Shown: positions 121 through 27,072 of the stretch, one piece after another | Layout of the letters: each line of letters opens with the position of its first letter | Position numbering within the stretch: the stretch's first letter is position 1 | NCBI RefSeq assembly: GCF_003231495.1 | Contig: NZ_PQWO01000023.1 | Span: 24,931-56,930 of the forward strand | DNA length: 32,000 nt | Direction: 5' to 3' | Source of the DNA: Acaryochloris thomasi RCC1774 | GTDB lineage: Bacteria; Cyanobacteriota; Cyanobacteriia; Thermosynechococcales; Thermosynechococcaceae | Made by a program: the position numbers and the translations under genes | Notes under the pieces: model-generated | What the model was told of the DNA's origin: nothing | Seen by the model: the letters and a program-made list of their open reading frames with translations, nothing else | The model's database searches: none

Positions 121-1950
121 ATGGGTTACACCACCGAAATAATTACTCGGCGCAACTTTATCCGGTTCTCAGCCGGAATGGGATTTGCACTGGGGTTTAA
201 CAGTCTTTCCCCAAGGCTACGGGCTGCAACAGCTCGTGAGGCAGAAGGAGGCCGTAATTATCCCGACGTAATTAACCTTCAGGTACAGAAAACCAAGCTT
301 GAGATTGGCGGTAAAGAGACTTCAGCCATCACCTCAAATGGCTCCATTCCTGGCCCCTTGGTGAGGCTTAGGGAAGGTCAAACCGCCACCATTCAAGTAA
401 CCAATCGGCTCAAGGAAGACACGTCAATTCACTGGCATGGCATTCTGCTACCACCTGAGATGGATGGCGTACCCGGAGTTAGTTTTGCGGGTATCAAACC
501 AGGAAAGACTTTTACCTATCGTTTCCCCGTCCAGCAAAGTGGAACCTATTGGTATCACAGTCACAGCGGTGTACAGGAGCAAATGGGGCATTTTGGACCC
601 CTAATTGTAGACCCTTTAGAGCCAGAACCGTTCGAGTATCAGCGGGATTATGTGGTGATGCTCTCGGACTGGACCTTTGAGAATCCTCATAGTGTCCTGG
701 CCAATCTAAAAAAGATGAGCGCCTACTACAATTACAACCGGCGCACGGTGGCAACGCTCGCCAAGGATTTACCCTGGAAGCGGATGCGAATGGATCCTAC
801 AGATATTGCGGATGTGACGGGGGCGACCTACACCTATCTCATGAACGGCAAGGCCCCTGGATCGAACTGGACAGGACTATTCCGTTCTGGGGAGAAAGTG
901 CGCCTGCGGTTCATCAACGCTTCAGCCATGACTTTTTTTGATGTGCGGATTCCTGGCCTGAAGATGACCGTTGTGCAGGCCGATGGTCAGAATATTCAAC
1001 CCGTCCCTGTTGACGAATTTCGCATCGCTGTGGCTGAAACTTACGACGTGATCGTTGAACCGCAAGACGAGCAAGCCTTTACCATTTTTGCCGAGACGAT
1101 GGACCGTAGCGGATATGCTCGTGGTACCTTGGCCCCCCGTCAGGGAATGACGGCACCTATTCCTAAGCAACGTCCCCGTGCCATGCGAACAATGGCCGAT
1201 ATGGGCATGATGCATGATATGTCGAGCATGGACTCAGGTGGCATGAATAATATGCCGGAGAAGGGGTCTAGTGGCATGAATAACATGCAGCACGACATGT
1301 CAGGCATGAATTCAAGCGATGTGAAAAATATGCAACACAACATGCCAGAGAAGGGATCTGGTGGCATGAGCAACATGCAGCACAACATGTCAGGCATGGG
1401 TCAAGGAACCCCTCACGGTCCAGATGGTCATGGCCCCGGTAATTCAGGTGTGCCGATGATGCTTCAAAGCCGCCTTGATGATCCTGGCATTGGCTTGGAG
1501 AATACGGGAACCCGTGTCCTGCTTTACAGCGACTTGCGAAGTCTCGCCCCCAGAGAGGACCAACGACAGCCGGAACGGGAGATAGAAATCCATCTCACCG
1601 GCAACATGGAGCGCTACATGTGGTCCTTTGATGGGAAAAAGTATTCGCAATCGAAAGAGCCAATTCCGTTCCGTAACGGGGAACGGCTGCGGCTCACCTT
1701 TATCAACGACACCATGATGGAGCACCCCATTCATCTGCATGGCATGTGGATGGAGCTGGTCAATGGGGCAAGGTCTCATCAGCCCCGAAAGCACACCCTC
1801 AATGTCAAACCTGCCGAGAAAGTGTCGGTGGATGTCACGGTAGATGCTCCCGGTAATTGGGCCTTCCACTGCCACTTGCTCTACCACATGGAAGTGGGAA
1901 TGTTCCGCATCGTTTCTGTCACTAACCAAATTGCAGAGGTAAATTTATGA
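121..1950 (+). CDS. copA: Tat-exported multicopper oxidase, CopA/PcoA-type copper resistance protein with Met/His-rich insert
   Basis: 609-aa ORF; twin-arginine leader (ITRRNFIRFSAG); four copper-ligand motifs HWHG, WYHSHSG, HPIHLHG, HCHLLYHMEVGM; Met-rich block MGMMHDMSSMDSGGMNNM...NMQHNMSGM. Confidence 0.9.
   Translation: MGYTTEIITRRNFIRFSAGMGFALGFNSLSPRLRAATAREAEGGRNYPDVINLQVQKTKLEIGGKETSAITSNGSIPGPLVRLREGQTATIQVTNRLKEDTSIHWHGILLPPEMDGVPGVSFAGIKPGKTFTYRFPVQQSGTYWYHSHSGVQEQMGHFGPLIVDPLEPEPFEYQRDYVVMLSDWTFENPHSVLANLKKMSAYYNYNRRTVATLAKDLPWKRMRMDPTDIADVTGATYTYLMNGKAPGSNWTGLFRSGEKVRLRFINASAMTFFDVRIPGLKMTVVQADGQNIQPVPVDEFRIAVAETYDVIVEPQDEQAFTIFAETMDRSGYARGTLAPRQGMTAPIPKQRPRAMRTMADMGMMHDMSSMDSGGMNNMPEKGSSGMNNMQHDMSGMNSSDVKNMQHNMPEKGSGGMSNMQHNMSGMGQGTPHGPDGHGPGNSGVPMMLQSRLDDPGIGLENTGTRVLLYSDLRSLAPREDQRQPEREIEIHLTGNMERYMWSFDGKKYSQSKEPIPFRNGERLRLTFINDTMMEHPIHLHGMWMELVNGARSHQPRKHTLNVKPAEKVSVDVTVDAPGNWAFHCHLLYHMEVGMFRIVSVTNQIAEVNL
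1252..1398 (+). repeat. Two copies of a 57-nt unit (period 90 nt) inside copA encoding MPEKGS(S/G)GM(N/S)NMQH(D/N)MSGM
   Basis: atgccggagaaggggtctagtggcatgaataacatgcagcacgacatgtcaggcatg at 1252 versus atgccagagaagggatctggtggcatgagcaacatgcagcacaacatgtcaggcatg at 1342; 51/57 identical by hand count. Confidence 0.8.
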
Positions 1951-2426: not shown

Positions 2427-3587
2427 GTGAGGATTCAACATCGTTATTGGGCGACCGCTCTTTCTGGAACGTTGGTTTCGATGGTGCTTGGGGGTGGTCT
2501 TTCCCCGGCGCAGGCGGAGAAGACTAAAACGCAGCCAATTCATCAGGAGGTTGAAATCTTAGCAGCCCCCGATTCGCCACCAGCCGACCGTTTGGAAGAC
2601 CCCAATGAGACAGAATCCTCTGCAGAGGAAAGCGATCAACTGGCACCCCTTGCACCCAACCCTCGCGCTACCGTAGACGCCCTCAAACCGACAACGGCAG
2701 AAACCGCTAGTTCAGAAGCGTTGCTGCCCACCCACTCCAAAGGCTTTGAGGAGACAGAGGCAGGCAAAGTACAGCCTCCCATAACTTTTCTTGAGACCAG
2801 CAGGCAGACTCCCCAGCCTTCTTTTACAAATGGTCCTCTAGCACAGTCTCTAACGGAGGAATCGCCTGAAATGCCGCAGCTCTCACCTGCAGCTCCACAA
2901 CCAACGGACAAGGAGGACTGGCCATCGCCCGTTAAAGATAATCAAACTTTCTTCTTTGTCTTGATTGATCAGTTGGAGATTCGCACCGTTGATGGCCCAA
3001 CGACCCTGAATTGGGATGCAGTCGGATGGGTGGGTGGCGACTTCAGACGCTTCTGGTTCAAAACAGAGGGTGACGTGGGCCTCTCGGCAGACACTGGCGG
3101 AGAAGCAGAGGTGCAAGCTCTATACGGTCAACTGGTCGCACCCTTTTGGGATTTTCAGGCGGGCCTAAGGTATGACCGCTTATATGGTCCTGCTCCAGAC
3201 CGAGGGCGAGCCTTTGCGGTGGTCGGCATCCAGGGATTAGCGCCCTATCTGTTTGAGGTGGATGCTTCCCTATTCATTAGTGAGGATGGTGATGTCTCAG
3301 CTAGACTCACAGGTGAATATGAGCTGTTGCTGACCCAGCGATTGATCTTGCAGCCCAAGGCTGAGATTAACCTTGCCGCCCAGAGGGTCGAAAATTTTGG
3401 TGTTGGCTCGGGACTCAATGATATTGAGCTGGGACTGCGCCTCCGCTATGAAATTAGCCGCAAGTTTGCTCCTTATGTTGGCATCAACTGGCAGCGCAAA
3501 TTCTTTGAAACCGCTGACCTAGTCAGAGAAGAAGGAGAGAGCGTCGGGGACTTTTCAGTTCTAGCGGGTGTGCGGCTTTTATTCTAG
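2427..3587 (+). CDS. copB: CopB/PcoB-family copper resistance outer-membrane protein with long Pro/Glu/Ser-rich linker
   Basis: GTG start preceded by gaggtaa; signal peptide ...GGGLSPAQA; C-terminal ~230 aa show the CopB family pattern (DQLEIRT, WDAVGWVGGDFRRFWFKTEG, LYGQLVAPFWDFQAGLRYD, GLAPYLFEVDASLFISEDGDVSARL, LILQPKAEINLAA); position directly after copA. Confidence 0.8.
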   Translation: MRIQHRYWATALSGTLVSMVLGGGLSPAQAEKTKTQPIHQEVEILAAPDSPPADRLEDPNETESSAEESDQLAPLAPNPRATVDALKPTTAETASSEALLPTHSKGFEETEAGKVQPPITFLETSRQTPQPSFTNGPLAQSLTEESPEMPQLSPAAPQPTDKEDWPSPVKDNQTFFFVLIDQLEIRTVDGPTTLNWDAVGWVGGDFRRFWFKTEGDVGLSADTGGEAEVQALYGQLVAPFWDFQAGLRYDRLYGPAPDRGRAFAVVGIQGLAPYLFEVDASLFISEDGDVSARLTGEYELLLTQRLILQPKAEINLAAQRVENFGVGSGLNDIELGLRLRYEISRKFAPYVGINWQRKFFETADLVREEGESVGDFSVLAGVRLLF

Positions 3588-3679: not shown

Positions 3680-4018
3680 ATGACGCTTCACGTCACAAAT
3701 GCAGAGCCGAATACCGGATTATTTTCTTTGGCTCACAGTGGCGAAAGTCACGATCGTTCAAGCGAGAGCCAAAAAACTGAAGCTTCAATATCTCATGGAT
3801 CAGAGACCGTGCCAGAGTCTCAACCTACCGCCCCTGCCAAGATTACCAAGCCGTCGCTCACTCCTGTAGAACCTTCTACAGCGTCAGTGGTCAGTAATCA
3901 AACAACGCTGGCAAGTTCCGTGATGGGCTTTCCCTTTGGTTTGGGTGAACTCTCCTTGGGTTTGATTCTAATCGGCCCAGTCTGTTTGTCTGCCATAAGA
4001 CGTTGGCTGCAGTCATGA
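3680..4018 (+). CDS. Hypothetical Ser/Thr/Pro-rich protein with C-terminal transmembrane anchor
   Basis: 112-aa ORF; C-terminal hydrophobic helix LGELSLGLILIGPVCLSAI followed by RRW; stop overlaps next ATG (ATGA), suggesting translational coupling; no family recognised. Confidence 0.35.
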   Translation: MTLHVTNAEPNTGLFSLAHSGESHDRSSESQKTEASISHGSETVPESQPTAPAKITKPSLTPVEPSTASVVSNQTTLASSVMGFPFGLGELSLGLILIGPVCLSAIRRWLQS

Positions 4019-4299
4019 GTTCTTTACGCTTGAACCTACGCCGCCTCCACAAGGCGACTGCCCCTCTGATGTGTGTTCCCCTTCTGCTAACGTTACTCAC
4101 TGGCGTCGGATTTCAAATGGCGGCTGTCAGCGGCAAGGGAGATCAGTTTCTTTGGCTGTTGGACCTCCATCGAGGAAGGTTTGGTCGGTTTGACTTGGAA
4201 TTGGTCTATCCCTTTCTCAATGCCCTCGGCTTGTTGGTGCTGGTGATTACGGGGACGCTTATGTGGTTGCAGCAATATCAACTTCGGGTAAAACGGTAA
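4015..4299 (+). CDS. Small membrane protein resembling PepSY-associated TM helix proteins
   Basis: ATG at 4015 overlaps upstream stop; LRRLHKATAPLMCVPLLLTLLTGVGF and LGLLVLVITGTLMWL helices match the LHrw...lTG pattern of PepSY_TM proteins; ORF track start (TTG 4003) is less likely. Confidence 0.5.
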   Translation: MSSLRLNLRRLHKATAPLMCVPLLLTLLTGVGFQMAAVSGKGDQFLWLLDLHRGRFGRFDLELVYPFLNALGLLVLVITGTLMWLQQYQLRVKR

Positions 4300-4307: not shown

Positions 4308-5018
4308 TCATTCAACTCTAATGATATTTTTCATCCCAAACCAGTTGTAGCGCCGAATGCCCCAGGGCAGACCCACCAACAGAACCAGAAAAATAGCCGC
4401 CAGTGCGAGGCTTTCAGGTAGCCCTATCGTAAATGCTGACCCCATGTAAGTTAGCAGAAGGGTTGAAGGAATCATGCCCAATAAGGTAGCGGTAGCGTAG
4501 ATAGGGAGTGAAAGTCCGGTGATACCTGCGCCATAGCTCATCAAATCAAACGATAAGACCGGAAGTAAACGAGTCAGAAAGATCAACCAGCCAAGATATA
4601 GCTCTCCTCGCTCCTTTGAAAAGTAGATGAGTTTGCCGGTGAGGGCGTAAACGGCGGAGCGTCCCAAAGTAAGGCCAATATAGTAGGCCGCTAAACTGCC
4701 AATAAATCCACCGATGACGCTATAGATCCCCGCCACTAGAGACCCCCATATTGCGCCAGCGGCCACTGCAATGGGGGCACCTGGAATCGGACTAATCACC
4801 ACGGATAGGGCAACGATCCCAATGTAGACGAACGGCCCCAGCCAGCCTGCGTTGATGACCGTTTGCTTGAAAGTTTCAGGGCTAGATAGATCGGGCGGAG
4901 AATAAATCCACCAGCAGACAAGCAAGCACCCAATAAGCACCAGAAGTGAGATCGCATTGGGTCGGCTGAATAGAACCCGCCATCGCCTAGATTGTCTGTG
5001 ACTTCTCCGTTTAGTCAC
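4308..5018 (-). CDS. TVP38/TMEM64 (DedA-related, SNARE-associated) family membrane protein
   Basis: 236-aa polytopic ORF; basic N-terminus then LGPFVYIGIVALSVVISPIPGAPIAVAAGAIWG motif typical of the family; 12 nt downstream of the oxidase gene on the same strand. Confidence 0.75.
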   Translation of the reverse strand: MTKRRSHRQSRRWRVLFSRPNAISLLVLIGCLLVCWWIYSPPDLSSPETFKQTVINAGWLGPFVYIGIVALSVVISPIPGAPIAVAAGAIWGSLVAGIYSVIGGFIGSLAAYYIGLTLGRSAVYALTGKLIYFSKERGELYLGWLIFLTRLLPVLSFDLMSYGAGITGLSLPIYATATLLGMIPSTLLLTYMGSAFTIGLPESLALAAIFLVLLVGLPWGIRRYNWFGMKNIIRVE

Positions 5019-5030
5019 TCAATACTGGCC

Positions 5031-6521
5031 TCATGCCTTCATCTCAATAGTTCCCATCATTCCCAGCTCTTCATGGTCGAGAATATGGCAGTGGTAGACC
5101 GTCTTCCCAGGAAAATCTCGGAAAGGAATCCGAATCCGAACCGTCTCACCTGTCGGAATTAACACCGTGTCTTTCCAGGCTTGATAAGGAACTGGCTGGC
5201 CGTTTCGAGCAATCACTTGAAACGGATTGGTGTGTAGATGAAACGGATGATCCATCACCCCTGTATTGCTAACTTCCCAATCCTCGACGGTGTCGAGAGA
5301 TACCTGAGTGTCAATACGTTGGTGATCGAAGGACTTGCCGTTAATTAAAAACACCATGCCCTGTCCAGGCACCATGCCATGATCAAGCTCAAACTGGCGT
5401 ACGGTTTGTGGCTCCGGTAGCGTCTCAACCTCAATCAATTGTTGAGGTATGGATTGAGGCTCCACTTGGCCGGTATAAGCCAGTGTCGCCAAGGTTTGAG
5501 GTGAGTCCTGATCATTACCCTCCATCATGCCTGGTCCCATTCGACCGCGGCCCATCATGCCTGGGCCTCCGCGATCTCGCCTCATCATGCCACCCCCCAT
5601 CATCCCCATCTGGCCTCGACTGTAGGGTAGATTCAAGAGACGGTATTGGCCCGCTTCCTGATCACCCTGCACCAGCACTTCGGCCCGTTCCCCTGGCGAC
5701 AAAAGCAGTTCCTGTATCTCTACTGGTGTCGATAAAGGATGGCCGTCAGTGGCAATCAGGTATAGGGGATGCTTTTCTAGAGCCAAACGATAGAACCGAG
5801 CATTCGAGGCATTCACTAGCCTCAGCCGCGCCAGTCCACCAGCGGGGATTGAAAACGAAGGGTTCACCTGCCCGTTCACCGTCACCAGATCGCCCTCACG
5901 TCCTGCCATTCGCCCCATCATTGGCTGTCTTTGCTCGACTACAAAATCTTTCAAAAACAGAAACGTTTGTTCTGCCGCCTGAATTTCGGGAATCTCATCT
6001 AGCGCCCCTCGGACGATGAACATGCCACCTAACCCACCCAGGATCTGATCAGCAACATAACCGTGCAGGTGAGGATGATAGTAAGCAATTCCTCCCGGAT
6101 GTTGCTGGGGAATCGAAAATTCATAGAGGGCGCTTTCCCCGCTATCAATGCGACGGAAAACGTCGTCTGCATTCCCCGTAGGTGGAATATGCAGTCCGTG
6201 ATAGTGAATGTTGGTCGGATCGCTCAGGTTGTTTTTGAAGCGAATCCGAACTATATCTCCAGGCTTTGCTTCTAGCCGGGGACCGGGAACTTGGCCGTTG
6301 TAGCTCAGTAAGTTAGTGGGTTTCCCATCCAGGTTAACTTGACGATAGCTGGCCTCCAACTCTAGGTCTAACAAGCCATCTTTGCTGGTGTACAGCTTTG
6401 GCAAACTGAGGGGTGCTTTGGGTACCGTTTGAGTTTGGCCGCGACTGCACTGCGAGAGCAACACGGCACCTGCACTACTGGCACTGAGAACCAAAAATTG
6501 TCTGCGGTTGAGCGATTGCAT
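5031..6521 (-). CDS. Second Tat-exported multicopper oxidase (CueO/laccase-like) with Met/Gly-rich loop
   Basis: 496-aa ORF; leader MQSLNRRQFLVLSASSAG; copper motifs HYHGLH, YHPHLHG, HPFHLH, HCHILDHEELGMMG; loop RGQMGMMGGGMMRRDRGGPGMMGRGRMGPGMMEG. Confidence 0.85.
   Translation of the reverse strand: MQSLNRRQFLVLSASSAGAVLLSQCSRGQTQTVPKAPLSLPKLYTSKDGLLDLELEASYRQVNLDGKPTNLLSYNGQVPGPRLEAKPGDIVRIRFKNNLSDPTNIHYHGLHIPPTGNADDVFRRIDSGESALYEFSIPQQHPGGIAYYHPHLHGYVADQILGGLGGMFIVRGALDEIPEIQAAEQTFLFLKDFVVEQRQPMMGRMAGREGDLVTVNGQVNPSFSIPAGGLARLRLVNASNARFYRLALEKHPLYLIATDGHPLSTPVEIQELLLSPGERAEVLVQGDQEAGQYRLLNLPYSRGQMGMMGGGMMRRDRGGPGMMGRGRMGPGMMEGNDQDSPQTLATLAYTGQVEPQSIPQQLIEVETLPEPQTVRQFELDHGMVPGQGMVFLINGKSFDHQRIDTQVSLDTVEDWEVSNTGVMDHPFHLHTNPFQVIARNGQPVPYQAWKDTVLIPTGETVRIRIPFRDFPGKTVYHCHILDHEELGMMGTIEMKA
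5520..5615 (-). repeat. Three tandem ~30-nt units encoding the Met/Gly-rich loop of the second oxidase
   Basis: On the + strand, units begin tccatcatgcc (5521), cccatcatgcc (5551), ctcatcatgcc (5581); units 1 and 2 roughly two-thirds identical by eye, unit 3 weaker. Confidence 0.6.
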
Positions 6522-6575
6522 ATGTCTACCTGGACTACGAAACTAAAATGCTTAGAGTTACGAACTGAGTAAAAC

Positions 6576-7205
6576 TTAAAGCTGCTTGGGAGTTGCCACT
6601 GCCGCCATCAGTCCCCAGATCAGGCCGAAGCGATCTTTTGTGGTTTGGCTAATCTCAAATTGAGCCGATGCCAGTAATTGATGAAATTCAGCTTGGGTAT
6701 AGCATTGCTGGTGGGCTGAGTCGAAAATTTTCAACACTGCATCACAAACCTTACAGAGCAAAAAATCGCGGCACCAATCTAAAATAATCAACTGTCCTTG
6801 GGGTTTAAGAACCCGCTTTACTTCTGCCAGGGCCGCTAGAGGTTGGTCGAAGTAGTGAAAGGCATTGGCAGACACAACAACATCAAACGTCTGCTTAGGG
6901 AAAGGAAGGGCTAAGACTGAGGCATGTTGAAATTGAACATTGGAATGGGAAGAAAATTTCTTTTGGGCGATCTCCAGCATATTCTCAGATAGATCAACCC
7001 CGACTACGTGCTGATCCGGGTGTTCCTTTACCAATCGCTGCTCAAATTCACCTGTGCCACAACCCACATCCAGGACATTCGCCGAGGATGAAATCTTTGC
7101 ACATGCTTGCAAGAAATCGAGGGTTTGAGCCGTGTAGCTCCGCCAACGCCAGTCATACTGACTGGCTACCTGGTCATACTGCTCTCGAACCTTAGCCTCA
7201 GTCAT
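6576..7205 (-). CDS. Class I SAM-dependent methyltransferase
   Basis: Motif I VLDVGCGTGEF, post-I VVGVDLSENM, motif II/III FDVVVSANAFHYF...LKPQGQLIILD; ATG at 7205 (MTEAKVREQYD) preferred over the ORF-track start at 7241. Confidence 0.8.
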   Translation of the reverse strand: MTEAKVREQYDQVASQYDWRWRSYTAQTLDFLQACAKISSSANVLDVGCGTGEFEQRLVKEHPDQHVVGVDLSENMLEIAQKKFSSHSNVQFQHASVLALPFPKQTFDVVVSANAFHYFDQPLAALAEVKRVLKPQGQLIILDWCRDFLLCKVCDAVLKIFDSAHQQCYTQAEFHQLLASAQFEISQTTKDRFGLIWGLMAAVATPKQL

Positions 7206-7377
7206 GGTGCAACGATTAGGTATACCTCTATTACGGCACATAATTATGAAATCAGGATGACATTCATTTCGTTTAAAGCCTTACTTAAAAAGCTAATATG
7301 AACTGTTGAACGCCAAAACAGGCATAATCATATGCATAATGTGATTCGTTTGACACGAACCTAAGCGGCAAACCAAT

Positions 7378-7515
7378 CTAAAAGCATGGCGTGGATTTTG
7401 CTGATGCTGAACGTGTTATCGTGGCGACGGCCACTCCAGTACGAGTTGCTAATTCGCCAATCTTCAACGGTGGATGGGTGGGCGGTACCGCTGGGGCTGT
7501 TGCGATCTGGCTCAT
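7378..7515 (-). pseudogene. Truncated MerR-family regulator gene (N-terminal HTH stump only)
   Basis: 45-codon ORF MSQIATAPAVPPTHPPLKIGELATRTGVAVATITRSASAKSTPCF*; LKIGELATRTGVAVATI matches the MerR-family HTH start (MKIGELAKRTGVSVETIRYYE), but the expected RYYE, dimerisation helix and metal-binding C-terminus are absent in all three frames before the methyltransferase gene. Confidence 0.5.
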
Positions 7516-7548: not shown

Positions 7549-7580
7549 AAACTAAACTCTCAAGTCGGCTTGAGAGTCAA
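7549..7580 (-). promoter_or_regulatory. MerR-type operator-promoter, site A (reads leftward)
   Basis: Minus strand TTGACTCTCAAGCCGACTTGAGAGTTTAGTT: -35 TTGACT (7580-7575), 19/20-nt spacer holding a perfect 9-4-9 dyad ACTCTCAAG/CTTGAGAGT (7556-7577), -10 TTAGTT/TAGTTT. Confidence 0.55.
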
Positions 7581-7674
7581 GGATTAGCCTTCCCCCCAAG
7601 CGGTGAAATCTGTCTGCCTCCGAGCGTTATTGCTAGAGAAATTCAAAAGATTGTGATGGTCTCACTCCCAGTTC

Positions 7675-7706
7675 TTGACTCTCCAGCTAGCTACAGGGCT
7701 TAGGCT
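7675..7706 (+). promoter_or_regulatory. MerR-type operator-promoter, site B (upstream of thioredoxin-like gene)
   Basis: TTGACTCTCCAGCTAGCTACAGGGCTTAGGCT: -35 TTGACT, 19/20-nt spacer with partial dyad around AGCTAGCT, -10 TTAGGC/TAGGCT; GGAGAG RBS and ATG 7734 follow. Confidence 0.5.
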
Positions 7707-7733
7707 GTGTAAACAATTCTGGAGAGTTAAATA

Positions 7734-8006
7734 ATGACTCAGCGTTTAATTGAAGTGTTCACGGCGGATTGTCCTCTTTGCCATCCTACGGTCCAGCTCG
7801 TCCAGGAGTTAGCCTGCCCAGCCTGTGAGATCCAGATTTGGCATTTGGGTGCAGACGATGCCACCCAAGGTCGTGAGCAAGCTGCTCAGTATGGCATTCA
7901 TCGGGTTCCGGCAGTGGTGGTGGATGGCAAGTTGGCAGACTGCTGCCAAAATCAGCAACCCATTTCCCGCGAGTCTCTGATCCAGGCAGGGGTCGGGCAA
8001 GGGTAA
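7734..8006 (+). CDS. Small thioredoxin-fold protein (redox-active disulfide / glutaredoxin-like) with CPLC, CPAC and CC motifs
   Basis: 90-aa ORF; IEVFTADCPLCHP...GIHRVPAVVVDGKL pattern of Thioredoxin_3-type proteins; good RBS (ggagag) 8 nt upstream. Confidence 0.65.
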   Translation: MTQRLIEVFTADCPLCHPTVQLVQELACPACEIQIWHLGADDATQGREQAAQYGIHRVPAVVVDGKLADCCQNQQPISRESLIQAGVGQG

Positions 8007-8039
8007 AGTTTACGGCTCAAGCAAATGAATATCTGAGGC

Positions 8040-8071
8040 TTGACTCTCAAGTTGGGTTAAGGGTTAAGGCT
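8040..8071 (+). promoter_or_regulatory. MerR-type operator-promoter, site C (upstream of the RND efflux operon)
   Basis: TTGACTCTCAAGTTGGGTTAAGGGTTAAGGCT; same length and architecture as site B, sharing TTGACTCTC at the left and AGGCTGTG at the right. Confidence 0.5.
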
Positions 8072-8256
8072 GTGCATATTATGAAAAGCTGGTCTACCTT
8101 GGCAGCTATTTTTCTTCAGCTTACAGACCACATCGACGATGACTCAACCGGGTCATCTCACAACTTTTAGCATTCTTGGCTTCCTTCTCATACTGATTTC
8201 ACAATTGGTCGATAGGCTTGACTGAGGAAGCATTTTCTCATTTTAGTAATGCAATA

Positions 8257-10041
8257 ATGACCCAAGATAGCGTCAAATCCAAACCGGATGAATTAGTCTC
8301 TTCACCTATTGAAGTCGAGGAGACCCGAGAAGTCGAGGATGAGAGCAGTGATTCCCCGAGCACATCCTCAGTTCATCTCCCTGGCTTTCGTCCATTTAGA
8401 AGCGTATTGGCGCTGGGCATTTTTATCATTCTCTCCGGTGGCATTTGGTTTGTCGTCAAACACTTCGGTGGGATGGCAAATATGGGGATGGATCACGGAG
8501 CGATGGACGAAGGTTCCATGGATCATAGCGGTATGTCCATGGAGGATATGATGGCGGTAGAGGGGACATTCAACGCAGTGCCCGTCCAGGTGGAAGAGAT
8601 TCGTCCGCGTTTGGTGCAAGAAACAGTTCAATACACGGGGTCAGTGTATCCCTACCTAGAAGTTACTGTTTATCCCCGGATCGCCGGACAGCTCAGAGAC
8701 TATTCCATTTATCCAGGAGATCGCGTCCAAAAGGGCCAGCTCATTGCTCAGCTCGATGCCTTAGAACGGCGAACGGAGTTAGACGAAGCGCGGGCCGAGC
8801 GGAATGTGATGCAAGAGGTACTTGCCGCCAACGAAATTCAGGTGACAGAGCAACAGCGCGAGATTGATCGCCTGGTTGCTGAACTCGATTATATGAAGCT
8901 CAAGGCCAAGCGCTTTAAGGATTTAGTAGCTGGTGGAGCCTTAGCTCAAAATGACTATGATGCGATCGCTGCCGAGGTGGCAGCCAAGGAAGCTGCAATC
9001 TCAGGGGCCAGAACCAAGCTGGGGCGTATGCGGGCAGAGCTGGGGCGAGATCGGGCCATGATTAGCCAATCTCAAGCGAAGGCCAATACCGCCGTAGTGA
9101 TGGCTCGATACACTGTGATTACCGCCCCCATCAGCGGTATTGTCCAGTCCCGCATGGCTGATCCCGGCGTTGTGGTGCAGCCAGGGATAGGAATTCTCAA
9201 AATCGGCGACTATCGCCGGGTGCGGCTGCGGGCCAATGTCGCTCAGGCCGATGCGGTGGGGATTGGCAAAGGCACCCGCGTCAAAGCTAAGATTCCGGGC
9301 ACCGAGACGCCACCCATTACTGGCGAAATCACCAGCATTTTCCCCAACGCCGATCCCCAAACACGCACGGTCACTGTAGAGGCGGTGGTGAATAATCCCC
9401 AAGATCAGCTCCTGTCGGGGCAGTTTCTAGAGATGCAGATTATCAAAACCAGTAAACCCGCAACCCTATCGGTGCCTCAGATGGCCTTGCATCAGTATCA
9501 GGGACAGTCTGCAGCGTGGGTGGTGCAGGGCAGTGATGACGCAGCTATTGCTGAGCGTCGTTTAGTGAAACGGGGCTTAGTGAGTGGCGATCGCGTAGAA
9601 ATTACCCAGGGTTTGAGGGCAGGCGATCGCGTTATTACCACAGGCTTCTCCCGCTTGTCAGACGGCACTAAGGTGGCGATGGTCAATACCGCTGGCGAAC
9701 CCGTCGCGTCCCTCTCGGCTCCGGCAGCAGGCACGGTGGCGATTCAATTGATCAGTCCTGATCCCAAAACCGTGAAGATGGGGACCGCCGAGTTGACTCT
9801 GCAGGTGAGCGATCCGGCGTCCAAGTCGCCCTTGGCCGTAGACCAGTTAGCGGTGGATGTGACCATGCCGATGAAAAATATGGCTCCCATGACCACCATG
9901 GTCGATCTGAAACCCCTGCCGGAACCCGGTCGGTTCCGAGTCAAGACTCACTTTGGCATGAAAGGCGACTGGATAGTCAAAGCCCAGGTCAAGGACTCAG
10001 ACCACAAAGGCCGCGCTCAGTTTAAGCTAACGGCACAATAG
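8257..10041 (+). CDS. RND efflux periplasmic adaptor (membrane fusion protein, CusB/HlyD-like) with N-terminal Met/His-rich segment and C-terminal YtkA/FixH-like domain
   Basis: TM anchor VLALGIFIILSGGIWFVV; GGMANMGMDHGAMDEGSMDHSGMSMEDMM; barrel-sandwich/coiled-coil/beta-barrel pattern (YTGSVYPY...GQLIAQLD...ITAPISGIV...GQFLEMQI); ATG at 8257 preferred, TTG 8218 possible. Confidence 0.85.
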   Translation: MTQDSVKSKPDELVSSPIEVEETREVEDESSDSPSTSSVHLPGFRPFRSVLALGIFIILSGGIWFVVKHFGGMANMGMDHGAMDEGSMDHSGMSMEDMMAVEGTFNAVPVQVEEIRPRLVQETVQYTGSVYPYLEVTVYPRIAGQLRDYSIYPGDRVQKGQLIAQLDALERRTELDEARAERNVMQEVLAANEIQVTEQQREIDRLVAELDYMKLKAKRFKDLVAGGALAQNDYDAIAAEVAAKEAAISGARTKLGRMRAELGRDRAMISQSQAKANTAVVMARYTVITAPISGIVQSRMADPGVVVQPGIGILKIGDYRRVRLRANVAQADAVGIGKGTRVKAKIPGTETPPITGEITSIFPNADPQTRTVTVEAVVNNPQDQLLSGQFLEMQIIKTSKPATLSVPQMALHQYQGQSAAWVVQGSDDAAIAERRLVKRGLVSGDRVEITQGLRAGDRVITTGFSRLSDGTKVAMVNTAGEPVASLSAPAAGTVAIQLISPDPKTVKMGTAELTLQVSDPASKSPLAVDQLAVDVTMPMKNMAPMTTMVDLKPLPEPGRFRVKTHFGMKGDWIVKAQVKDSDHKGRAQFKLTAQ

Positions 10042-10098
10042 GATGCCTTTCGAGAGATCGAACTTGATCTAAATCTATTACTGACTGTGAGGACTAAT

Positions 10099-10581
10099 AT
10101 GAAAAAAACTTTTTTGGCGATCGCTGTCGTGAGTACCCTGCTCGTTGCCTGTGGTGCTAACTCCAATGAGCAAGCGACCCAATCATCATCGAACGGCTCA
10201 AGCGCACCCATCGCACAAACAGAGGCAAACGCTGAGAGCAACAGAGACAGTCAAGACCATAGCGAAAGGTCAGGCACGAATCCAGTCAAGGCGTCTGAGG
10301 ATATTCATCTGGTGAGTCCTGAATCTGGCGAGTTACCGATGGGCGACGCCGAAATTGTGGTTCATATCGAGCAGGAAAATCTTACGCCAGAGGACGTTTC
10401 CGCTGATGTCTCAATGCCCATGGCAGGCGAAGCAGATATGACATCTCTGGCGATCATTGAACCCGGTGACGAAGCCAAACAGTTCAAAATTAAAACTAAC
10501 TTTGGCATGGCGGGTTCCTGGACCATGGAGGTTAAGGCTAAAGATGCTGAACCCGCAACCCTAGCCTTCAATGTGAAGTAA
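10099..10581 (+). CDS. Lipoprotein with YtkA/FixH-like metal-associated domain
   Basis: MKKTFLAIAVVSTLLVACG lipobox; the C-terminal ~95 aa are paralogous to the C-terminus of the upstream adaptor (DVSMPMAGEADMT...FKIKTNFGMAGSWTMEVKAKD vs DVTMPMKNMAPMT...FRVKTHFGMKGDWIVKAQVKD). Confidence 0.7.
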   Translation: MKKTFLAIAVVSTLLVACGANSNEQATQSSSNGSSAPIAQTEANAESNRDSQDHSERSGTNPVKASEDIHLVSPESGELPMGDAEIVVHIEQENLTPEDVSADVSMPMAGEADMTSLAIIEPGDEAKQFKIKTNFGMAGSWTMEVKAKDAEPATLAFNVK

Positions 10582-10586
10582 GCACC

Positions 10587-13500
10587 GTGAAAGAATTCCT
10601 CACCCGCTGGTCGATCAAGCATCCGGTGATTGTGGCGGCGCTCTATATTGGCGTCTTGATCCTGTCTCTGCTGGTCTTGCTGGGTCTGCCGGTACGGATG
10701 ATGCCCTATGTCGAAAGCCCCCTGGTGGCCGTTATTACCCAAGCTCCCGGCACCGCCCCCGAAGAGGTGGAAGCCTATATCACCAAGCCCCTAGAGCAGC
10801 GGATGACGGTCCTGGAAGATGTGCGTTTTGTCCGCTCGACCTCCCAGCAGAATCTATCTTTGGTGACGGTGCAGTTTGGCTGGGGCGGCAGCATCGACAA
10901 GGCAGTCCAGTCCGTTCAAAGCCTGATGAAGGCGGCGGAGGGGGATACAGAACTACAGGGTTTAAATGCCCGCTCCTACTGGGTGCTGCCTATTGATCCC
11001 CTCAACCGACCTGTATTGACCCTGGCGCTGACAGGGGACCAGTGGGATCCAGTGCGACTGCGGGAGTTTGCCGATAATACCCTGGTGGATCGGCTCACCA
11101 AGCTGGACCAGGTGCAGGCGGTGTCGATTCTGGGGGGCTATCGACGGCAGCTCCAGGTGATTGTGGATCGCCAAAAATTGGGGGCCTATGGTCTTTCGAT
11201 TGTTCAGGTGCGCGATGCCTTAGATCGCAATAATTTGAGTCAAGGCTCTGGCATTCTGACGCGGGGAGATGCCGAAATTCTGGTGCGGACTGATGAGCGG
11301 GTCCAAAACGCGGAGGCATTGCTGACCTATCCATTGCTAGAGCGTCAGGGCCAAGTGGTGTATCTGCGGGATGTGGCCACGGTGCAAGATACCTTTGAAG
11401 AGCGTCGCAGTGGGTATCGCTACAACGGCCAAGCGGCCCTAGCGGTGAATATTATTCAAAAGCCGGATTCTAGCTCTCCAGCGGTGATTAAGCGGGTACG
11501 GGCCGAGCTAGAGAAAATCCAGCAGGAATACCCAGGGCTGGAATTTCAAGAAGCTTACGATAACTCCTTTTTAGTCAATATTATTGTGCAGAGCACGTTT
11601 AAGGAGTTGCTAATCAGTGTCCTGTTGGCCGGGGGCATTATCTTAATCTTCCTCGAAGACTTCCGCGCTACCGCGCTGATTATGATTTCCATTCCGACCT
11701 CGCTGGCCCTTTCAACGCTGCCTTTTGGCCCCATGCACATGTCCCTCAACTCTTCGACGTTGATTGGCATGACGATGGCCATTGGTAAGCTCGTGGATGA
11801 TTCCATCATTGTGATTGACGCCATTGAGCAAAAATTGCGCCAGGGGTTGCGCCCGCTGCAGGCCGCGATCAAAGGGACGGGGGAAGTCTTTTTGGCTAGT
11901 GTGGCCGCTAGTTGTGTCATGGTGGCAGCACTGCTACCCACCATACTATCGGGCGGGCTAACCGGACTAATGTTTGTGGGCCTGGTGTGGCCGATGGTTT
12001 TTGCTTTCGTAGCTTCAGTTCTGGTGTCAGTGACGCTGGTGCCGCTGCTGGCGGTGGTGTTCTATCGCTCCCGACCCCAATCCGGTCGAACTTGGCTGCA
12101 AAAACTGCTGACCCCAGTTAATTATGGTTTTCAACAACTCGTGCGGGGTTATAGTTGGCTCCTCCGGCTTTCGCTCCGCAATCGGGAACTGGCCTTGGCA
12201 GTCCTGGGTTCAACAATGGTGTTGGCGATCGCACTTTACCCCCTAGTTCCCCAGGAAATGATGCCGCTAGGGGATTCTGGTCAGTTCATGGTCACCTTAG
12301 AAATGGAAGCAGGCAGTTCCTTTGCTAAAACTGATGCCAGTACCGCTCAGCTCGAAACACTATTGCTACAACAGCCAGAGGTGGAAAAGGTCTCCTCTCA
12401 AGTGGGGTATGAGCTGACCCGCAACAGCACCTATTTCACCGGCTACAGTATGGGGAACGCCTATACCGCCTCGCTGACCGTCACCCTGAAGCTGGATCGA
12501 GATCGCGACATCTGGCAGGTCATGGACACAGTTCACACCGAAGCCCTGGCAACCATTCCCGGCATCCGACGGCTGGCGCTAAAGGAAATGGGCGTCGATG
12601 TGATGGCCACCTCTGCAGCACCGATTCAACTTGCCGTCTATGGTGATGATCTAGACATTCTTCACAAACTGGCGAACGATGTGCTGCAGATTGCCGAGGA
12701 TACGCCGGGGCTGATGATGGCCCAAACCAGCTCAGCCATGACCCAGCCAGAGTTAAGGCTCAATATTGATCGCCGCCGCGCCCAGGAGTTGGGTCTCAGT
12801 GTAGAAGCGATCGCCACCCAATCCCGGTTTGCACTCAATGGTGGTCTGACCCAGCGCTCCTACAACCGTCCCAATCTTCGGCAAAACTCGATTTTAGTGC
12901 GCTATGACGAAGCAGATCGGGGCACGACGGCTGACCTAGAGAGCACCTATCTGACAACTCCCAACGGTGGGCAGGTACCGCTTAATTCACTGGTGCAACT
13001 TGACTATCGACAAGGGCCGACGCTAATCGAACATATCGATGGTAAGCGGGTTGTCTATGTGAATGGTTACTATCGCCGGAATGGACCCGCTTCGATGGAC
13101 TTGAGCATGGCGATCGCAATGCGGGCCGGAGCTGAGCTAGAGATACCACCGGGCTATGGCATTGACTCCATGGGCGATATGACTGACATGATGATCGAGT
13201 TCGGACGCTTGCTCAATGGGCTAGCCGTTTCCCTAGTGCTGATTTACATCATCTTGGTGATTCAGTTCAACTCTTTTATTCACCCCTTGGTGATGATGCT
13301 GTCGGTGCCGCTGCAGTTGGTGGGGGTCTTTGGTGGACTAATCCTCGCGAATCAAACGCTATCCACTGTTTCCATTCTGGGGATTATCATTCTCTCGGGT
13401 CTGTCTTTATCAGCGGCGATTTTGCTTCTAGAGCTAATTATCACAAAGCGACAGGAGGGGTTACCTCGGGCAGCGGCGATCGCCCAGGCTGGACCCGTGC

Positions 13501-13766
13501 GGTTAAAAGCGATCGTGATGACCACCTTGACCACGCTGATTGTTGTCGTGCGGCTAGCCTTCTTCCCTGAAATTGGCTCGGATGCCTATTCTTCTATTGC
13601 CACAGTGATTCTGGGCGGGCTGGTGATTTCAACCCTATTGACGTTAATTGTGGTGCCGATTGTCTATACGTTTGTAGATGATGCCGTGATGTTAATGAAG
13701 GGTTTATCGCGATCTCAGCTCAGAATGGAATCATCTAGCGCTACAAGTTCCATTCCTCGTAATTGA
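10587..13766 (+). CDS. RND efflux transporter permease (AcrB/CusA superfamily)
   Basis: 1059-aa, 12-TM architecture with two large periplasmic loops; TM4 region GMTMAIGKLVDDSIIVIDAIEQ; GTG start 6 nt after the lipoprotein stop; no outer-membrane factor gene follows. Confidence 0.9.
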   Translation: MKEFLTRWSIKHPVIVAALYIGVLILSLLVLLGLPVRMMPYVESPLVAVITQAPGTAPEEVEAYITKPLEQRMTVLEDVRFVRSTSQQNLSLVTVQFGWGGSIDKAVQSVQSLMKAAEGDTELQGLNARSYWVLPIDPLNRPVLTLALTGDQWDPVRLREFADNTLVDRLTKLDQVQAVSILGGYRRQLQVIVDRQKLGAYGLSIVQVRDALDRNNLSQGSGILTRGDAEILVRTDERVQNAEALLTYPLLERQGQVVYLRDVATVQDTFEERRSGYRYNGQAALAVNIIQKPDSSSPAVIKRVRAELEKIQQEYPGLEFQEAYDNSFLVNIIVQSTFKELLISVLLAGGIILIFLEDFRATALIMISIPTSLALSTLPFGPMHMSLNSSTLIGMTMAIGKLVDDSIIVIDAIEQKLRQGLRPLQAAIKGTGEVFLASVAASCVMVAALLPTILSGGLTGLMFVGLVWPMVFAFVASVLVSVTLVPLLAVVFYRSRPQSGRTWLQKLLTPVNYGFQQLVRGYSWLLRLSLRNRELALAVLGSTMVLAIALYPLVPQEMMPLGDSGQFMVTLEMEAGSSFAKTDASTAQLETLLLQQPEVEKVSSQVGYELTRNSTYFTGYSMGNAYTASLTVTLKLDRDRDIWQVMDTVHTEALATIPGIRRLALKEMGVDVMATSAAPIQLAVYGDDLDILHKLANDVLQIAEDTPGLMMAQTSSAMTQPELRLNIDRRRAQELGLSVEAIATQSRFALNGGLTQRSYNRPNLRQNSILVRYDEADRGTTADLESTYLTTPNGGQVPLNSLVQLDYRQGPTLIEHIDGKRVVYVNGYYRRNGPASMDLSMAIAMRAGAELEIPPGYGIDSMGDMTDMMIEFGRLLNGLAVSLVLIYIILVIQFNSFIHPLVMMLSVPLQLVGVFGGLILANQTLSTVSILGIIILSGLSLSAAILLLELIITKRQEGLPRAAAIAQAGPVRLKAIVMTTLTTLIVVVRLAFFPEIGSDAYSSIATVILGGLVISTLLTLIVVPIVYTFVDDAVMLMKGLSRSQLRMESSSATSSIPRN

Positions 13767-13860: not shown

Positions 13861-14073
13861 ATGCCAGATCAGATAGAAGAGAGAGTTGCCCTCTTAGAAG
13901 CTGAAGTCGCCCGTCTCAAAACGAAGGTAGAAGATAGTGCCTCTTCAAGACCCTGGTGGGAGAAAATCACCGGAACCTTCGCCAACAATCCAGCCTATGA
14001 CGAAGCGATGCACTTAGGGCAGGAGTACCGAAAGTCCCTGCGACCAGGCTCTAGTGAATCACCTGCCAGTTGA
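13861..14073 (+). CDS. Antitoxin partner of the PIN toxin (cyanobacterial VapB-like)
   Basis: 70-aa ORF with N-terminal coiled coil EERVALLEAEVARLKTKV and PWWEKITGTF motif; stop overlaps the start of the PIN gene. Confidence 0.6.
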   Translation: MPDQIEERVALLEAEVARLKTKVEDSASSRPWWEKITGTFANNPAYDEAMHLGQEYRKSLRPGSSESPAS

Positions 14074-14492
14074 TGTACATCCTCGATACCAATCACCTGA
14101 GCGTTCTAGATCGGGGAGGCACCTCAGCACAACGGCTATTTCAGCAATTAGCAACCATCAACCCCTCAGAAGTAACGACGACAATTATCAGCTATGAAGA
14201 GCAGATGCGAGGTTGGCTGAGTTACCTTGCCAAAGCAAAGACGATTGAGCAGCAAGTGAATGGATACAACCAGCTTAAGCGCCAATTGGCAAACTATTGC
14301 ACTATTCCAGTCCTTGAGTTTGATGAAGCTGCGGCACAGAAATTTCATCACCTCAAACAGCAATATCCTAGGTTAGGATCGATGGATCTGAAAATTGCAG
14401 CAATCGCCTCTGTCCAGGGGGCAATCTTGCTAACCCGAAACAGTCGTGATTTCAGCCAGATTACAGGCTTGTCCATCGAAGACTGGACGTGA
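14070..14492 (+). CDS. vapC: Type II toxin VapC (PIN-domain ribonuclease)
   Basis: MYILDTNHLS (first acidic residue), ISYEEQMRG, GSMDLKIAAIA, LLTRNSRDF: the usual four PIN acidic positions; overlaps the upstream small ORF. Confidence 0.8.
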   Translation: MMYILDTNHLSVLDRGGTSAQRLFQQLATINPSEVTTTIISYEEQMRGWLSYLAKAKTIEQQVNGYNQLKRQLANYCTIPVLEFDEAAAQKFHHLKQQYPRLGSMDLKIAAIASVQGAILLTRNSRDFSQITGLSIEDWT

Positions 14493-14549: not shown

Positions 14550-15071
14550 TTAGGAGTTATGTTCTGCAAATGCTGTGGTTTGTCCGGCCCGATCAAAGGA
14601 AAAAACCGTGTAGGGTTCTTTGACATTCCCCGATTCCATCCCCGGCGATCCAATCGGCATTCCAGGAACAGCAATGCCCACCACATCAGGCTTCTCAGTT
14701 AGCAGTCGCTTCACGTCAGCCGCAGGAATGTGACCTTCGATCACGTAGCTATTTGCGACTGCAGTATGACAGGAGGCAAGATCTTCAGGGACATTATGCT
14801 CCCGCTTCACACCGTCCATATCCTCGACAATATTGTCCTCAACCTGGAACCCCTGAGCCTGCATGTGTTTGACCCATTCTCCACAACAGCCACAGGTGGG
14901 GCTGCGGTAGGCCGTGATTTGACGTGCTTCAGGGGGGAGGGTGTCTGCGATCGCTTGATGCTGAACATCAGTAGGTGCAACCATGCTGTAAACGCCGATG
15001 CCAACGCCACCTGCGACCAGAATCGCAGCCCCAAAGCGCAGCCAAGGTTGCTTTAAAAGATTGCTTGCCAT
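14550..15071 (-). CDS. DUF411 (CopG-like) periplasmic metal-binding protein
   Basis: Signal/anchor helix, then YRSPTCGCCGEWVKHM...LASCHTAV...YVIEGHIPAADVKRLL...GIAVPGMPIGSPGME, the family signature including the CxCC motif. Confidence 0.85.
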   Translation of the reverse strand: MASNLLKQPWLRFGAAILVAGGVGIGVYSMVAPTDVQHQAIADTLPPEARQITAYRSPTCGCCGEWVKHMQAQGFQVEDNIVEDMDGVKREHNVPEDLASCHTAVANSYVIEGHIPAADVKRLLTEKPDVVGIAVPGMPIGSPGMESGNVKEPYTVFSFDRAGQTTAFAEHNS

Positions 15072-15132: not shown

Positions 15133-15164
15133 AGGATAGACTCTCTACCTAACTAGAGAGTCAA
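15133..15164 (-). promoter_or_regulatory. MerR-type operator-promoter, site D (upstream of the DUF411 gene)
   Basis: Minus strand TTGACTCTCTAGTTAGGTAGAGAGTCTATCCT: -35 TTGACT, 20-nt spacer with perfect 9-6-9 dyad GACTCTCTA/TAGAGAGTC (15139-15162), -10 TATCCT; about 60 nt upstream of the ATG at 15071. Confidence 0.55.
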
Positions 15165-17449: not shown

Positions 17450-17842
17450 ATGGCTGACTCTAGCCCCCTGAAACGACAATCTCCCCCATCTTCTGATGCT
17501 CCTAGCTGCGATGAATCATTGGTACATCTGGACAATGTTCGCCAGGTGCAATCAGACGTTATCGAAACTGAAAAGGCTCAGCGGATGGCTGACTTTTTTA
17601 GTGCCCTCTCTGATCCCCATCGGTTGAAGCTCCTATCGGCGCTGGCCCAACAGGAGCTGTGCGTCTGTGACTTAGCTGCTGCTGTAAAAATGGGTGAATC
17701 GGCAGTGTCTCATCAGTTGCGTGTGTTGCGATCACAACGCCTGGTCAAATACCGACGCCAAGGTCGAAATGTCTGCTACAGCCTCGCTGATGACCACATC
17801 ATGACAGTATATCGAGAAGTAGCCGATCACCTGGACGAGTGA
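17450..17842 (+). CDS. ArsR/SmtB-family metal-sensing repressor (ZiaR/SmtB/AztR-like)
   Basis: ADFFSALSDPHRLKLLSALAQQELCVCDLAAAVKMGESAVSHQLRVLRSQRLVKYRRQGRNVCYSLADDH: winged HTH with the ELCVCDL alpha3 site and C-terminal alpha5-type D/H ligands; closely resembles Synechocystis ZiaR as I recall it. Confidence 0.9.
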   Translation: MADSSPLKRQSPPSSDAPSCDESLVHLDNVRQVQSDVIETEKAQRMADFFSALSDPHRLKLLSALAQQELCVCDLAAAVKMGESAVSHQLRVLRSQRLVKYRRQGRNVCYSLADDHIMTVYREVADHLDE

Positions 17843-17975
17843 AGGTTTTTCTGAATTAAACCGACCTCTATCAGGGGGGTGACGTCTTCAGCTAGTTCCA
17901 GTCCAACAATGAAAAGCTGACTGATTGAGCTTATAACTCTGATCAGATTCAGTGGATAAGAATATTTTTATGATG

Positions 17976-18011
17976 TATTATCTGAATAGTCTTTCAGATA
18001 TTCAGATAATA
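17976..18011. promoter_or_regulatory. ArsR/SmtB-type operator: nested inverted repeats overlapping the ATPase promoter
   Basis: TATTATCTGAATA-gtctttcaga-TATTCAGATAATA (13-nt perfect arms 17976-17988 / 17999-18011) with an inner TATCTGAA-tagtct-TTCAGATA dyad; TGAA...TTCA cores as in SmtB 12-2-12 operators; a TAATAC -10 candidate overlaps the right arm. Confidence 0.55.
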
Positions 18012-18031
18012 CTCTTGGCAGGTTTTTCTAA

Positions 18032-23852: not shown

Positions 23853-24020
23853 CCCAAGGGTTCAGCGACTTGCAGTGTAGAGTGGGAGGGGAGCTAGCGG
23901 ATCCAGCTACTCTGACTTTTGGGCAATCATTCAAACAACATTACATAAAAACCCAGGCATCAGCATCATAAGACTAAATCTATTCTAGAAATAGATAAAT
24001 ATTTACACAAATAAACCTTT

Positions 24021-27066: not shown

Positions 27067-27072
27067 GGAGCC

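Follow-up and report, generated by a model that had tools for sequence, protein, structure and literature searches.

MerR-type promoter-operators with a 20-bp spacer in cyanobacteria, and four copies in an Acaryochloris thomasi island whose own merR gene is truncated

The mechanism by which a MerR-family metal sensor switches on a promoter with an over-long spacer is already textbook material. In Escherichia coli, activation by DNA distortion was reportedly established for the zntA promoter, PzntA, on which ZntR acts, and CueR serves copA and cueO through the operator ACCTTCC-N7-GGAAGGT within a 19-bp spacer, binding Cu(I) via Cys112 and Cys120 with Ser77 nearby. In Synechocystis, the MerR-family activators of metal-resistance genes include CoaR, which responds to cobalt (PMC4284471), and Slr0701, which responds to mercury (PMC6741143). 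A 2014 review lists CoaR as the cyanobacterial MerR-type metal regulator and explains copper resistance by CopRS-CopBAC, with CopR reportedly binding to the promoters of both copBAC and copMRS (PMC4284471), and a 2023 survey found no homologues of one-component copper sensors in its representative cyanobacteria (PMC10141476). Here, we analyze a 32,000-nt stretch of Acaryochloris thomasi RCC1774 (contig NZ_PQWO01000023.1, positions 24,931 to 56,930; hereafter the window, numbered from its first letter), which carries four MerR-type promoter-operators, sites A to D, around genes for copper-type proteins and an RND efflux operon. Together with about 100 related sites beside a conserved MerR clade, sites A to D point to a cyanobacterial sensor of this one-component kind and supply its operator, a likely regulon, and candidate ligand residues. 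We consider it probable that A to D are true MerR-type promoters of a cyanobacterial regulon and that, with the local merR gene truncated, control comes from a paralogue encoded outside the 32 kb.

All four sites lie where a first-pass annotation of the window had placed them, D included. Site A (minus strand, 7549–7580, TTGACTCTCAAGCCGACTTGAGAGTTTAGTTT) consists of the -35 box TTGACT at 7580–7575, dyad arms at 7556–7564 and 7569–7577, and the -10 box TAGTTT at 7554–7549, with a spacer of 20 bp. Site D (minus strand, 15133–15164, TTGACTCTCTAGTTAGGTAGAGAGTCTATCCT) has the same -35 box, arms at 15139–15147 and 15154–15162, and TATCCT as its -10 box at 15138–15133. On the plus strand, site B (7675–7706) combines TTGACT with a 20-bp spacer and TAGGCT at 7701–7706, and site C (8040–8071) is a degenerate copy in which TTGACT is intact. 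The 9-mer common to all four, TTGACTCTC, occurs 4 times in the 32 kb against an expectation of 0.32, a count that none of 100 shuffles reached. The arms are perfect 9-nt inverted repeats in sites A and D, separated by 4 and 6 nt, respectively. Over the full 22-bp dyad, the complementary pairs number 10/11 in A, 9/11 in D, 7/11 in B, and 6/11 in C, in line with the earlier description of the dyad as perfect in A and degenerate in B and C; random 22-mers drawn from the window reach at least 7 pairs in ∼0.7% of cases and at least 9 pairs in ∼0.02%.

Sites of the same design recur in relatives of this island. We collected 80 cyanobacterial loci with homologues of the RND adaptor encoded in the window and later added 10 more, 9 of them cyanobacterial. 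A seed pattern requiring TTGAC[TC][CT]T and at least 7 dyad pairs returned 66 sites in the related loci, and from the 63 unique ones, with the window left out, we built a matrix with the consensus TTGACTCTATAGTTGACTAGAGAGTTTAGCAT. The resulting layout is TTGACT, a fixed 20-bp spacer containing the dyad ACTCTnnAG-N4-CTnnAGAGT, and then TAnnnT. The TTTA and final T columns of the seed sites had not been selected by the search pattern and nevertheless carry 1.2–1.8 bits each, which places the -10 box TAnnnT exactly 20 bp from the -35 box; the spacing between the two boxes is constant in 79 related sites. Sites A, B, and D follow this rule with TAnnnT at 20 bp, and site C can be read as AAGGCT at 20 bp or as TAAGGC at 19 bp. 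The over-long spacer recognized in the first-pass annotation therefore stands, but its range of 19–20 nt narrows to 20 bp because the informative -10 columns sit at this fixed distance. When the window was scanned with the matrix, only site A (39.9 bits), site D (37.9 bits), site B (35.6 bits), site C (27.6 bits), and palindromic echoes of these scored 8 bits or more, against 7.2 bits for the best of 20 shuffles. The word count, the matrix scan, and the dyad counts together rule out a chance origin. Covariation within the dyad is weak, with only the column pair 9/20 above expectation (0.62 vs 0.43), because most columns barely vary. The right half-site does vary: column 23 splits between A (44 sites) and G (28), and column 24 between G (51) and C (20).

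The family is closely tied to merR genes. Sites are present in 30 of the 31 loci with merR versus 13 of the 54 loci without it (Fisher p = 1.4e-11, uncorrected for phylogeny). Among the 102 sites of at least 24 bits, counted over the loci fetched at that stage plus the window, the gene on the 3′ side is a merR gene ∼30 times, at a distance of 11–44 nt and mostly ∼30 nt. Polarity was assessed in 89 sites, of which 65 have a gene start 5–100 nt past the -10 box and 8 have one on the opposite side. Behind the sites, a DUF411 gene recurs in 10 loci other than the window and a thioredoxin-like gene in at least 7 others, along with small YtkA proteins, multicopper oxidases, P-type ATPases, RND pumps, and, directly behind the sites, a 262–276-aa protein of the glutaredoxin/MauE type. 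The closest described promoter is PzntA, which shares the -35 box TTGACT, the 20-bp spacer, a 22-bp dyad of the form ACTCT...AGAGT, and the -10 box TATCCT. The PzntA sequence used here lies 36 nt 5′ of zntA and was found in every one of the 5426 E. coli genomes searched. Its score on the cyanobacterial matrix, in the same register, is 24.2 bits, and it matches sites A and D at 23 of 32 positions. Taken together, the co-occurrence with merR, the polarity, and the match to PzntA show that the sites are MerR-type promoter-operators whose spacer measures 20 bp, an identity that the first-pass annotation had proposed and that the matrix, the spacing, the dyads, and the link to merR support.

That annotation also implied a working local regulator, and here the window departs from it. 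Behind site A lies a 45-codon open reading frame (ORF; minus strand, 7378–7515) that is MerR-like in codons 1–33 only (7515–7417), and homology to the intact 153-aa merR of the closest relative, locus L082, ends at 7417/7418. At the DNA level, the alignment of the window with L082 extends from the RND side to 7418, with no homology further left. A longer, decayed merR, suggested by default tblastn alignments that extend to 7297, was rejected since all of these alignments end at 7417 when composition adjustment is omitted. Pfam scans and tblastn found no MerR-like DNA in the 32 kb besides the 33-codon remnant, and a metagenome scan for the truncation junction gave no match. The first 28 of the 32 bases of site A are identical in L082 and in a second relative, L083, each of which has an intact merR behind the site. 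L082, whose adaptor is 88% identical, has the same layout, with merR on the minus strand and the thioredoxin-like, adaptor, YtkA, and RND genes on the plus strand; L083 keeps the divergent thioredoxin/merR pair on a contig that ends at the thioredoxin-like gene.

What follows merR differs from one relative to the next: a peroxiredoxin gene with its own site in L082, a five-gene string including DUF411 in L083, and MerF-like and CopZ-like genes in the Acaryochloris locus L086. Because of these differences, the methyltransferase-oxidase-VTT module that follows the remnant in the window is read as a lineage-specific junction. This module (4308–7241, all on the minus strand) comprises genes for a VTT/TVP38 protein (4308–5018), the second of two multicopper oxidases (5031–6521), and a methyltransferase (6576–7205 or 6576–7241), and, judging from the alignments, it is joined to the merR remnant by rearrangement. 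The end of homology at 7418 and the restriction of MerR-like sequence to codons 1–33 mark site A as an orphaned autoregulatory promoter. Site A had been thought to drive the merR stump, the methyltransferase, the oxidase, and TVP38; it is indeed the merR promoter in the relatives, but the other genes were brought in by the rearrangement and have a box of their own at 7242–7261, described below. A simple scan detected no terminator either from the merR remnant to the methyltransferase gene or from the thioredoxin-like gene to the adaptor gene, and read-through may occur in both places. The divergent control hub that had been proposed for this region holds, as the A/B pair is kept in L082 and L083, and MerR-type promoters also stand back to back in L081 and in L090, a region of an Acaryochloris marina plasmid.

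The first gene behind site B, 27 nt downstream, encodes a 90-aa thioredoxin-like protein of the Thioredoxin_3 family with CPLC and CPAC motifs (plus strand, 7734–8006). A separate palindrome, TGTGA-N5-TCAC (plus strand, 7652–7665), lies 10 nt 5′ of the site B -35 box and is conserved as TGTGACATTTTCACA in L082 and L083; another factor might bind there, the three sequences being too alike to judge. Site C sits on a 135-bp segment (plus strand, 8018–8152) that is absent from L082 and partly common to L086. Together with its flanks, site C can be aligned to an L086 dyad of 9/11 pairs (8805–8840), which likewise stands ahead of a response-regulator box and the adaptor gene, so that C was inherited rather than newly inserted and, on this comparison, was probably lost by L082. 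When the segment was examined for derivation from a repeat or mobile element, only the site motif matched elsewhere, and a metagenome scan with the site C pattern gave no match. With G at column 17, where 78 of 79 sites have C, and A as the first base of the -10 box, where 73 of 79 have T, site C makes the weakest case of the four for being a working promoter. It had been assigned to the RND operon; it is the weakest of the four copies and is missing from L082, and the widely conserved promoter next to the operon is the response-regulator-type box at 8187–8218. A 29-codon ORF, MKSWSTLAAIFLQLTDHIDDDSTGSSHNF (plus strand, 8081–8170), begins ∼3 nt past the start predicted for site C and falls mostly within the segment that L082 lacks. 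Site D lies 61 nt 5′ of its target, a DUF411 (CopG-like) gene (minus strand, 14550–15071). As A to D are the sole matches in the window, the single regulon proposed earlier is plausible; the Zn/Cd/Pb label given to it was not upheld.

The MerR proteins encoded behind the sites form a clade that falls outside the named metal sensors. Nine members scored 69–102 bits against NCBIfam models with cut-offs of 143–168 bits: 80–95 bits for ZntR (cut-offs 143 for NF007069 and 168 for TIGR02043), 69–90 for CueR (147), 78–102 for CadR/PbrR (151), and 83–93 for MerR of the Hg type (151). The only name NCBI gives to clade members is "heavy metal-responsive transcriptional regulator". Across 38 diverse members (alignment A4, P0121 numbering), C93, W128, P132, and C142 are invariant. 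Aligned with Bacillus MerR (4ua1), C93 corresponds to Cys79 and C142 to Cys123, while Cys114 is unmatched; C93 also corresponds to Cys77 of CadR. In an alignment with reference sequences of ZntR and CueR, the clade keeps equivalents of only Cys79 and Cys124 among the ZntR ligands Cys79, Cys114, Cys115, His119, and Cys124, and it has W128 at the position of CueR Cys112 and Cys at that of Ser77. The clade thus differs from ZntR in lacking counterparts of Cys114, Cys115, and His119 and in having targets of the copper type rather than the zntA type. CadR/PbrR is the best NCBIfam model for several members, CadR is the second-best match among solved structures, and the right halves of B (CAGGG) and C (AAGGG) resemble CadR/PbrR operators; however, the C-terminal ligand pattern differs, and no Cd/Pb-type target lies behind the sites. 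CoaR and Slr0701 are comparable as MerR-family activators of metal-resistance genes in a cyanobacterium, but CoaR carries a precorrin-isomerase-like domain. Proteins of 364–369 aa in L037 and L068 also match MerR-family queries and could be of the CoaR kind; they are not the regulators discussed here.

With a ligand pattern this distinct, the metal is not readable from the protein alone. The targets point to copper. In L029, L052, and L068, the P-type ATPases encoded immediately 3′ of sites carry CPCALGLATP, YN, MxxSS, and, at the N-terminus, GMSCASC; their counterpart behind a site in L078 has YN, MxxSS, and an N-terminal CxxC, and its CPC motif was not located by pattern search. Such motifs are said to be the signature of the Cu(I)/Ag(I) P1B-1 class. 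The window has copper-type genes for two multicopper oxidases (the first at 121–1950, plus strand), CopB (2427–3587, plus strand), and DUF411. From this gene content, the signal is most likely cytoplasmic Cu(I), possibly Ag(I) too. By analogy with CueR, copA, and cueO in E. coli, the system would then be a probable cytoplasmic one-component switch that uses an over-long spacer to turn on genes for a multicopper oxidase and a Cu(I) ATPase.

A second promoter class accompanies the first at many of these loci. Its motif, ATTTCAT-N4-ATTTCATAATT followed by 6 variable bases and TAnnnT, has 66 unique instances in L005–L082, and its -10 box begins 10 bp after the second TTTCAT. The two direct repeats 11 bp apart suggest the geometry of an OmpR/PhoB-type response-regulator promoter. 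In the window, one such box precedes the RND operon (plus strand, 8187–8218, direct repeat CTCATACTGATTTCACAATT, 23.2 bits), with repeats at 8187–8206 and the -10 box TAGGCT at 8213–8218, 39 nt before the adaptor ATG. The other (GTCATCCTGATTTCATAATT, minus strand, 7242–7261, 30.9 bits) abuts the first ATG of the methyltransferase ORF at 7241, which lies inside this promoter; ATG 7205 is therefore the probable start of the methyltransferase (209 aa). The box is found ∼70–160 nt 5′ of the adaptor gene in most loci, and at ∼70 nt in many of them. Among the RND adaptor operons of 81 loci with enough upstream sequence (L001–L088 plus the window), 40 have the box only, 11 have a MerR-type site only, 8 have both (the window included), which brings the box to 48 of the 81, and 22 have neither; in all but one of the 11, merR lies between the site and the adaptor gene. 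This distribution looks like repeated exchange of regulatory input, and an RND operon placed by species under MerR-type control, response-regulator-type control, or both makes a useful case of such exchange.

The box co-occurs with response-regulator genes, which are present in 31 of 48 loci versus 10 of 37 (p = 9e-4), and the one response regulator that we scored reached 386 bits against the NCBIfam RppA equivalog, whose cut-off is 250. As in Synechocystis CopRS-CopBAC, the box at the RND operon is of the OmpR/PhoB type with a -10 box ten bp downstream, the likeness to CopR being one of geometry and of co-occurrence with RppA-type genes. Unlike that system, the window encodes neither a response regulator nor a kinase that we could find. 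An ORF of 112 aa and a PepSY_TM fragment of 98 aa occupy its plus strand at 3680–4299; they resemble, in size and Pfam hit only, a 114-aa/91-aa pair after the kinase gene of L088 and may be the remains of a lost two-component module. In L081 (5023–5119) and L090 (7727–7821), the two back-to-back MerR-type promoters are 31–33 bp apart, one facing merR, response-regulator, and kinase genes and the other a glutaredoxin/MauE-like gene, which in L090 is followed by a response-regulator box and the RND operon; the box was not found in L081. This arrangement suggests that a one-component sensor may control the expression of a two-component system in L081 and L090.

The mechanism that we propose follows from this architecture by analogy with MerR, ZntR, and CueR. 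TTGACT and TAnnnT, 20 bp apart instead of 17, would be too far from each other for efficient open-complex formation, and a MerR-family dimer would occupy the dyad within the spacer. The metal-free dimer would shut the promoter, and the metal-bound dimer would untwist the DNA so that polymerase could use both hexamers. The sensor would be a member of the distinct clade, ∼140–170 aa long with the invariant Cys-Trp-Cys, and normally encoded directly behind its own promoter; its regulon would include DUF411/CopG, thioredoxin-like, and YtkA proteins, multicopper oxidases, Cu(I)-type P-type ATPases, and the RND pump. In the window, site A would be the orphaned promoter of the merR gene cut by rearrangement, site B would drive the thioredoxin-like gene, with transcription possibly continuing into the RND operon, site C would be a weakened extra copy 5′ of that operon, and site D would drive DUF411. 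The RND and methyltransferase-oxidase operons would also be served by RppA/CopR-type response-regulator promoters. With no intact regulator in the 32 kb, any control at A to D must come from a MerR paralogue elsewhere, and with the local regulator dead, expression of the island is not predictable from sites A to D alone.

Several observations weigh against this reading. No intact MerR gene lies within the 32 kb, which leaves regulation in this organism putative. Sites B and C have 7 and 6 dyad pairs where their orthologues in relatives that keep merR have 9, and C has a poor -10 box. The statistics of co-occurrence between sites and merR are not corrected for shared ancestry. The sensed metal is deduced from gene content only, and the sensor has Cys where CueR has Ser, a feature reportedly typical of divalent-ion sensors; the MerF-like gene behind merR in L086 would also keep Hg(II) possible.

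The same observations lend themselves to a reading in which the sites are relics: there would be no paralogue, A to D would be unregulated and weakly constitutive, and the island would be run by the response-regulator promoters and an ArsR-family repressor. The cut at 7417/7418 in merR, the dyad pairs that B and C have lost relative to their orthologues, the mismatches of C at two near-invariant columns, and the response-regulator boxes directly 5′ of the RND and methyltransferase operons all fit such decay. Sites A and D, however, keep near-perfect dyads and full -35 and -10 boxes, the first 28 of 32 bases of A are those of the L082/L083 site, and related loci often have two or three MerR paralogues of the same operator type, which makes control in trans plausible. 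We therefore regard the relic reading as unlikely, though not negligible. Much harder to sustain is the idea that these are not MerR sites at all, being either binding sites of another factor or remnants of a mobile repeat. Nothing specific speaks for it beyond the use of palindromes by many regulators, and it would leave unexplained the fixed register of -35 box, 20-bp spacer, and -10 box, the position of the sites just 5′ of the merR genes with which they co-occur, and the prediction of gene direction from polarity. Similarity between copies stops at the 32 bp, apart from orthologous flanks, and Rfam returned zero family matches anywhere in the window, so we give this idea almost no credence.

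Among readings that accept MerR-type control, the first-pass annotation had called the sites ZntR/CadR/PbrR-like, implying a Zn(II)/Cd(II)/Pb(II) sensor that switches on the whole island. The operator shape bears this label out, its closeness to PzntA extending to the 20-bp spacer; the clade also scores slightly best against the CadR-PbrR, ZntR, and MerR models and keeps the Cys aligned with CadR Cys77 and Bacillus MerR Cys79. The proteins and targets do not bear it out: the scores stay far under every equivalog cut-off, only two of the metal-binding cysteines are there, no Cys stands where MerR (Cys114) and CueR (Cys112) have their first loop cysteine and that stretch has an invariant Trp, and target genes elsewhere are of the copper type, Cu(I)-type ATPases among them. 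Moreover, the Zn/Cd-type ATPase of the window has no site and lies just 3′ of an ArsR/SmtB-family gene. We consider such a sensor rather improbable. Equally doubtful to us is a division of labor in which one MerR paralogue would serve A and D, with the right half GAGAGT, and another B and C, with AGGGC or AGGGT. It would account for the systematic variation at columns 23 and 24 and for the frequent presence of two MerR clades, of ∼160 and ∼140 aa, at one locus. But L082 and L083 have both A-type and B-type sites with one merR each on the short contig recovered, both operator variants occur 5′ of merR genes of both clades, and the DNA-binding domains of the two clades are very similar at their start.

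If the favored reading, with a single family of MerR-type promoters under control from elsewhere, is taken further, many cyanobacteria may have an unrecognized one-component copper sensor, a MerR clade whose two-cysteine site would pair the Cys79-like residue with the last loop Cys, an invariant Trp taking the place of the first, and whose ZntR-like operator has a 20-bp spacer; the sensor would be wired together with RppA/CopR-type systems onto the RND operon, possibly as a cascade. We advance this suggestion tentatively and rate it somewhat short of an even chance. If it is true, cytoplasmic and periplasmic copper signals would form a cascade where a MerR-type promoter drives the two-component genes, as in L081 and L090. 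The regulon appears to be widespread in cyanobacteria, and neither its clade nor its operator nor its interplay with two-component control seems to have been described; we found no description of it in the literature searched, an absence that is no proof of its being unpublished.

The remaining genes of the window complete the picture of a resistance island. The RND operon on the plus strand encodes a Met-rich RND adaptor with a C-terminal YtkA domain (8257–10041), a YtkA-like protein (10087–10581), and the RND pump (10587–13766); between it and the DUF411 gene lie a short ORF and a PIN-domain gene (plus strand, 13861–14492). Further right, the plus strand carries what we regard as a separate Zn/Cd module (17450–19963) with no MerR-type site, in which a gene for an ArsR/SmtB-family regulator (17450–17842) is followed by one for a Cd/Zn-type P-type ATPase (18032–19963; P1B with SCPC and a His-rich N-terminus, TIGR01512 550 bits vs a cut-off of 313). 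An integrase fragment, ParA, UmuD/UmuC, and TfoX, all plasmid-like, are encoded at 23271–31203. A search of a plasmid collection at the DNA level gave zero megablast matches, and a more distant search matched the thioredoxin-like gene only. The nearest named relatives of the adaptor are from Acaryochloris, with 76% identity over the whole protein and 79% over the tblastn match, and their genes are carried by plasmids whose backbone is similar. An integrase, ParA, and a DUF4113 fragment are also encoded in L090, the region of the A. marina S15 plasmid, and the backbone genes that L090 has in common with the window suggest that the window is part of a plasmid or mobile island.

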